A stretch of DNA of 64,000 bases from Octopus vulgaris (lineage: Eukaryota): the NCBI GenBank assembly GCA_951406725.2, contig OX597819.1, positions 103,044,001 to 103,108,000 of the forward strand, in the 5' to 3' direction. Below the pieces are notes generated by a model. The model made no database searches. It was given only the letters and a program-made list of their open reading frames with translations, and had not been told where the DNA came from. A program made the position numbers and the translations under genes. Every line of letters starts with the position of its first letter. Position 1 is the stretch's first letter. Of the stretch, positions 56,482 through 56,924 are shown piece after piece.

Positions 56482-56924
56482 ATAAACTCTATTTATTTAC
56501 ATTATTTGCAATTGACGGATATTTGTCTTCATCTTGTTTGTTGTTAACACAAAGTTTCGGCTGATATACCCTCCAGCCTTCATCAGGTGTCTTGGGGAAA
56601 TTTCGAACCTGGGTTCTCATTCCTAAGGTATTTTTCGATGTTTTGTTGTTATTATTATTATTATTATTATTATTATTATTATTATTATTATTATTATTAT
56701 TATTATTATTATTATTATTATTATTATTATTATTATTATTATTATTATTATTATTATTATTATTATTATTATTATTATTATTATTATTCAGGTCACTGCC
56801 TCGAATCGAGCTCGGAATCTTGGGGTTAGTAGCCCGCGCTCTTAACCAGTGTACGCCATATGCCAGTGAGTACGCATGTACTGTGAAAAGAGCTTGTGCG
56901 AAGCGTACACAGAGCAATGAACTC
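56482..56924 (-). mobile_element. Composite non-coding retroelement: leader + tRNA-like head + (AAT)n + minimal hammerhead + A-rich tail
   Basis: The head at 56791-56864 and the leader to 56919 match 55910-56036. (AAT)n spans about 56648-56788, and the hammerhead is at 56547-56590. Confidence 0.75.
56547..56590 (-). ncRNA. Minimal type I hammerhead ribozyme motif (one substitution in stem III)
   Basis: ACAC-CUGAUGA-a-GGCUG-gaggguauau-CAGCC-GAAA-C-UUU-GUGU. Stems I and II are perfect. The canonical sequence would be GAAAC-GUH. Confidence 0.75.

Follow-up and report, generated by a model that had tools for sequence, protein, structure and literature searches.

Penelope-like elements of the Penelope/Poseidon clade, represented by Poseidon of Anolis carolinensis (PMC11167929) and Penelope of D. 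virilis (PMC2377424), carry a single reading frame with a reverse transcriptase (RT) plus a GIY-YIG domain at its C terminus, without a linker zinc finger. According to the accessible parts of these reports, the pseudo-LTR (pLTR) is a partial tandem, a minimal hammerhead overlaps the ORF start, copies end at two 3′ sites about 30 nt apart, and inverted 5′ copies occur. The lizard ORF also begins at the hammerhead, the cleavage of which needs the protein and is dispensable for insertion; in vitro, this element primes internally and requires downstream RNA (PMC11167929, available text). The promoter described for Penelope is LINE-like, with a DPE, and is unlike the head of the octopus element presented here (PMC2377424, available text). 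The octopus element shares the ORF type, the pLTR architecture, the two end sites and the inverted copies. It differs in that its pLTR contains a tRNA-derived head with A and B boxes, followed by (AAT)n, at which copy starts are piled up, and in that the endonuclease reads YKG in place of YIG.

The short form of the element resembles the octopus SINEs OK, OR1 and OR2, tRNA-derived short repeats reportedly described by Ohshima and Okada in 1994; OR1 and OR2 reportedly derive from tRNA-Arg. OR2 differs in being listed as a CORE-SINE (in the accessible part of PMC4758252). In Schistosoma, the repeats Sm-alpha and Sj-alpha also place a tRNA-derived Pol III promoter before a type I hammerhead, and their single copies are thought to be dead ends (PMC6765202, PMC2770079, accessible sections). 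Sm-alpha is tRNA-Gln-related, non-autonomous and often tandem, and those sections name no coding partner. In contrast, the octopus unit forms the terminal repeat of an element that codes for protein, is derived from tRNA-Arg, has a minimal hammerhead and is dispersed, mostly as inverted pairs. Non-LTR retrozymes share the type I hammerhead, the pLTR origin and the dependence on a Penelope-like RT (PMC7761336; 10.64898/2026.07.22.740005, both from excerpts), and the octopus mini-elements described below resemble them. However, retrozymes are defined in these excerpts by head-to-tail arrays. Among 65 position-ordered octopus insertions there was no array of at least three whole units, and partial tandems occur in the mini-elements. 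The words 'tRNA' and 'Pol III' are absent from the available text of 10.64898/2026.07.22.740005. The TRIMp3 elements Cassandra, Helenus and Ajax also have a small-RNA-derived Pol III promoter in their terminal repeat, with a proposed origin by SINE insertion; they are LTR elements, non-autonomous and equipped with PBS and PPT, whereas the octopus head sits in an autonomous Penelope-like form (PMC10886601, in part). The literature compared, which also took in accessible parts of PMC13282606, PMC3531059 and PMC3747384, contained no Penelope with a tRNA-derived pLTR, the scope excluding Ohshima and Okada 1994, Repbase, Dfam and the octopus repeat library. A tRNA-derived head in a Penelope terminal repeat is apparently undescribed, and a repeat catalogue may already list the short form as a SINE.

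In the window, the 64,000-nucleotide stretch of octopus DNA that was analysed, the unit lies on the minus strand at 56868..56493. It is a short, 5′-truncated copy of Penelope/Poseidon type, a solo pLTR, and its identity as a pLTR is nearly certain. A preliminary description of this DNA had listed an A box, a B box, (AAT)n, a minimal hammerhead and an A-rich end on this strand, and all of them are present. The tRNA-Arg(ACG)-derived head (56789..56868) begins, at the copy start, with three native bases upstream of tRNA position 1 (56865). Its A box (56846..56858) reads TGGCGTACACTGG, with a 2-nt insertion, where the family has TGGCGTAGTGG. The B box (56802..56811), which is GTTCGATTCC in the family and falls at tRNA position 53, bears two substitutions in the window, one of them at the conserved T54. 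The (AAT)n tract of the pLTR (56649..56788) is 140 nt long here; across family copies its length ranges from close to 0 up to about 180 nt. The minimal type I hammerhead (56547..56590) has its predicted cut between 56551 and 56550, and the 3′ end of the copy (56493..56546) stops at the inner of two family end sites, without the 30-nt tail. The unit had been described as lacking an ORF. In fact the element's own ORF starts here with an ATG at 56620, and its first codons (56489..56620) cross the hammerhead and the tail to a stop codon just beyond the element end.

The 'leader' of about 55 nt, previously drawn as a conserved part, is local flanking DNA found at this single locus (56869..56919, minus strand) and lies outside the family, in which the upstream sequence is the Penelope 3′ UTR. 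It was present in none of 28 head loci and 29 hammerhead loci, and a direct search that skipped very common words gave two matches from two candidates, both of them the window copies. The leader and head part of the second, inverted window copy lie at 55910-56041, within a local duplicate (55910..56069, plus strand) that consists of flank, head and decayed AAT, without the hammerhead. This duplicate displaces about 20 nt within another SINE, the intact form of which is found in locus L016. Flank and head were probably duplicated locally, since the second copy is flanked by the two halves of that SINE. The 8-nt direct repeat thought to bracket the unit does exist, with seven of eight bases matching. 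However, it lies off the element ends (56868 and 56493), and an equal match is found in 28% of random flank pairs from the same window; it was therefore rejected as a target duplication.

The genome (2.8 Gb, 227 contigs) was searched with the head and hammerhead parts separately, and duplicate loci were removed before counting. The hammerhead part was found at most 700 nt downstream, on the same strand, in 23 of 28 other head loci, and a head at most 800 nt upstream in 26 of 29 other hammerhead loci, which bears out the linkage foreseen earlier. A tRNA SINE and a Penelope fragment might have inserted by chance into one AAT tract, as would suit the heads without a hammerhead part (the second window copy and 3 of the 28 other head loci). 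These head-only copies can be attributed to later insertions into the AAT tract, and the linkage counts, together with the joint presence of head and hammerhead in ORF-bearing copies, refute chance co-insertion, which we regard as practically untenable. Samples taken at even spacing, 600 kb in all, contained nine insertions, from which the family was estimated at about 42,000 insertions (19,000-80,000), and its copies are about 6% divergent from the majority sequence. All parts, and the fold-back junction described below, also occur in contigs of three other organisms, where one contig bridges the junction between head and 3′ UTR.

A Penelope-like reading frame was found upstream at one hammerhead locus, and a search with the peptide of that frame scored 150 matches among 6,838 candidates. 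In the best 30 of these 150 matches, the head lies about 35 nt past the ORF stop codon at 27 loci, and head or tail lies 3′ of the ORF at 29. The ORF start is itself preceded by the tail and, before it, by variable lengths of the previous unit, with units arranged head to tail (the ORF-start query contained part of the tail). The ORF shares its frame with an ATG that lies 70 nt upstream of the cut site; this holds for L269 and, up to one stop, for L277, L282 and L283, and frameshifts occur in the other copies. The pLTR is a partial tandem that overlaps the ORF start, as in Penelope and Poseidon. Comparison of the tail with the pLTR of autonomous Penelope-like elements had been proposed, and the tail indeed continues straight into the ORF start. 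Its identity as a terminal repeat of Penelope type agrees with the suggestion that a Penelope-like RT mobilizes the unit. Its classification as a separate non-autonomous element does not hold, because the whole unit, tRNA head included, belongs to an autonomous Penelope, and short and long copies show no fixed diagnostic difference.

The protein is represented by a 569-aa frame in L091, which matches RVT_1 with E=2.7e-6, below Pfam's cut-off. The RT motifs DKG and YVDD are present, and a GIY-YIG-type domain, its motif enclosing two cysteines, lies at the C terminus. Homologues bear PF00078, PF26215 and, in some cases, PF01541; PDB searches gave weak RT matches at most, and no copy with a fully intact ORF was seen. 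The CX2-5CxxC linker is absent from the family's frames and from all 68 homologues (of 120) in which the motif was found, and its absence separates Penelope/Poseidon from Neptune and Nematis (10.1101/2021.04.23.441226, accessible part). Placed by its motifs, the element belongs to the Penelope/Poseidon clade by every feature tested. The YIG motif of the endonuclease is YKG in the family (L091 ORF) and in 12 of the 68 motif-bearing homologues, mostly the closest. Non-autonomous, retrozyme-like mini-Penelope units of about 330-520 nt were also observed, in which the pLTR is retained together with about 230 nt of the ORF start. A return to the pLTR occurs after 181-557 nt in 17 of 30 ORF-start loci, the lower bound being set by the query, and two pairs of loci share their mini-element junctions (L265/L267 and L273/L279).

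The insertion signatures are of the Penelope type. The 65 position-ordered insertions comprise 38 head-to-head inverted pairs, 24 insertions in a single orientation and 3 others. Both ends were mapped in 32 pairs: 27 of these carry the tail on a single arm, five on neither and none on both. Flanks share a word of at least 8 nt in 21 of 65 insertions (control mean 1.8, maximum 8), a few of these words being of low complexity, and target duplications measure 8-13 bp. The 3′ ends form two clusters, at about nt 222-241 and at nt 266, in keeping with Penelope elements, which have two priming sites and an optional tail. At the hammerhead cut site, copy ends show no peak.

The family-majority head is identical to a host tRNA-Arg(ACG) gene at 46 of 67 positions without gaps (shuffles: mean 17, maximum 33). 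The A box at tRNA position 8 and the B box at position 53 match the consensus in the family majority. Divergence is 5.2% in the boxes and 6.7% in the rest of the head, by a test that ignores base composition and shared descent, and identity to the tRNA is 18/22 in the boxes versus 28/45 elsewhere (p=0.16). At default settings the head was not called by ARAGORN, which found it, misfolded, at a lowered threshold. Rfam, at default settings, gave no tRNA or hammerhead match to the unit in the window or in L281. A hairpin predicted in the native sequence spans the head start and has GCCC-AC-GGGC at its centre. No T4 terminator occurs in the 2.4-kb majority sequence, with P=0.01 against a base shuffle and P 0.12-0.26 against codon or Markov nulls; T4 depletion was therefore rejected as proof of Pol III read-through. 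Separately, a tandem cluster of about 20 tRNA-Arg(ACG) genes, many of them spaced 206 nt, was noted at G000:C2:211.89-211.91 Mb.

Copy starts pile up at the head. Exact 20-mers of the family number 5,148 in the genome at head nt 30-49, 2,298 at nt 2-21, 929 at nt -26 to -7 and 794 at nt -150 to -131. Calibration, from small and partly selected samples, gives about 21,700, 15,600, 2,300 and 1,900 in the same order; a calibrated hammerhead count of 88,000 was left unused since it is based on 3/129. The loss per base at the head start is about 25-fold higher on raw counts and 40-fold higher after calibration. Of 30 position-ordered copies anchored at the head, 24 have their end between nt -7 and +2, and the other six continue into the Penelope 3′ UTR and ORF. 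Among 30 hammerhead-anchored arms, 4 end before the AAT tract, 6 within it, 4 inside the head and 11 at the head start, while 5 continue; nt +8 is reached by 16 of them, of which 11 stop between -20 and +8. The 5′ ends are scattered over about ten bases, from about -7 to +4, and a single peak is absent (the classifier being noisy on decayed copies). Under a strict rule, fold-back junctions centred on the two central bases of the hairpin were found at 14 of 142 anchors, and loose fold-back ends at the same spot also occur in the three other organisms.

Short copies outnumber long ones by about 7:1. No fixed diagnostic site separates 86 short from 54 long arms, and one position is skewed in frequency between them (p=0.004, uncorrected). 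Divergence of the hammerhead part is 5.9% in short and 5.8% in long copies (p=0.85); that of the head is 7.6% and 9.6%, respectively (p=0.057), so that short heads look slightly younger. In sequence and divergence the two classes of arms are alike, as they should be if short copies are by-products. The skewed site and the slightly younger short heads would count against that view.

The predicted fold of hammerhead stems I and II matches the one drawn earlier. The family majority reads ACAC-CUGAUGA-stem II-GAAACGUU-GUGU, with the catalytic core intact and in accordance with the predicted consensus GAAACGUH. Minimal hammerheads of this ACAC/GUGU type are dimer-dependent (Cervera and de la Pena, PMC4209133, accessible part). 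The whole core is kept in 36 of 126 copies that were not selected on the hammerhead. One core position is free, with a common variant in 24 of 134 copies, and the other frequent changes fall in loop II or at CpG sites. This pattern suggests that the core is under selection in source elements. In the window copy, CUUU replaces the CGUU of the family, as in 6 of 126 copies, and the palindromic helix III is thereby broken. From its sequence, self-cleavage of the window copy is unlikely, and the copy is probably inert.

These observations can be brought together in a model that we consider rather probable as a whole, in which the unit is a solo pLTR of a Penelope/Poseidon element and its tRNA-Arg head would act as a Pol III promoter that sets the RNA start. 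A tRNA-Arg SINE with an AAT tail would once have entered the 3′ UTR of the element and become part of the pLTR. The RNA would start at the head of the upstream pLTR and extend into the ORF. The RT would bind near the ORF start, prime 55-95 nt beyond the hammerhead cut, at either of two sites, in the way demonstrated in vitro for the lizard Poseidon, and copy back to the RNA 5′ end, often folding back to produce inverted pairs. Since the RT would prime in the first part of the ORF and need the RNA beyond, a need borrowed here from another species' element, RNA from an upstream pLTR would yield a cDNA from the tail to the RNA 5′ end, which is the short unit. Short copies would then be by-products of full or mini elements, and mini-elements could supply such RNAs. 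Multimeric or read-through RNA would be the source of long copies. Short copies, lacking the sequence past the tail, would mostly be dead ends. If the copy start marks the transcription start, it coincides with a tRNA-type promoter, and Pol III drive is likely, judged from where copies begin. Against Pol III stand the hairpin at the head start, the weak box statistics, the non-significant T4 absence and the RNA-seq pattern. In RNA-seq from a related organism, reads were equal on both strands, with no pile-up of starts or ends, including at the cut site; reads on both strands are expected from copies that lie inside host transcripts.

The tRNA piece might instead be an old SINE without promoter role, with Pol II transcribing the element from a different promoter in the pLTR, and copies stopping by fold-back or fall-off at the head-start hairpin, or because a Pol II start happens to lie there. 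The stem-loop GCCC-AC-GGGC predicted in the native context, the fold-back junctions centred on its bases and the scatter of copy ends all fit such a passenger, as does the precedent of D. virilis Penelope, with its LINE-like internal promoter with a DPE (PMC2377424, in part). However, copies end on the far (5′) side of the tRNA-like structure, which the RT has by then already traversed. Four forward arms extend to the head start immediately upstream of an ORF start, and read-through was seen in three of them (L277, L278 and L292, versus L281; the fold-back L283 was excluded). Moreover, both boxes retain tRNA spacing and consensus in the family majority, and a free cDNA end at the RNA 5′ end would produce the same fold-backs. 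We therefore hold a passive tRNA piece to be rather unlikely.

The numerical excess of short copies, the existence of mini-elements, which include the two junction-sharing pairs, and the one skewed allele could also point to an independent SINE, that is, a self-renewing lineage of short units transcribed by Pol III and mobilized in trans by the Penelope protein, perhaps with tandem mini-elements as masters. This is quite improbable, given that no fixed diagnostic difference exists, that divergence equals that of long copies and that the unit aligns colinearly with the end of the autonomous element itself; solo copies also lack the post-tail RNA that the lizard element requires. In a bolder form of the promoter-capture model, an autonomous Penelope would have swapped its promoter for a captured tRNA gene, so that even the full-length coding RNA would be made by Pol III (no T4 in 2.4 kb) while SINE-like copies are given off by the tens of thousands, which would amount to the birth of a SINE within its partner; we regard this as conceivable but doubtful.

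If the promoter-capture model is true, it would describe how Penelope-like elements can give rise to SINE-like repeats, and the likely ancestral state of 'tRNA + hammerhead' elements of the Sm-alpha type, and the captured promoter would explain the tens of thousands of SINE look-alikes in the genome. Because the RT primes internally, these copies may record the start of the element's RNA, and their starts would make Penelope transcription and the origin of inverted pairs directly testable. Part of the SINE annotation in such genomes would then correspond to solo pLTRs.

Several neighbouring repeats were recorded. Other repeats have inserted into the pLTR's (AAT)n tract (L007, L038, L066 and L108; L003, L019, L029 and L079), among them a LINE with a restriction-like endonuclease end, presumably Dong/R4-like. 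Other Penelope-like fragments lie near family copies (L003:2745-3080, L035:561-1088, L045:845-1267 and the downstream flank of L051); they gave no Pfam match, and we take them to be Neptune- or Naiad-like. In the window itself, transposase fragments at 17133-17498 and 1949-2296, both on the minus strand, are presumably Mariner/Tc1-like, and an intact-looking tRNA-Leu(TAG) gene lies at 54781-54862 on the plus strand, about 1 kb from the second copy.
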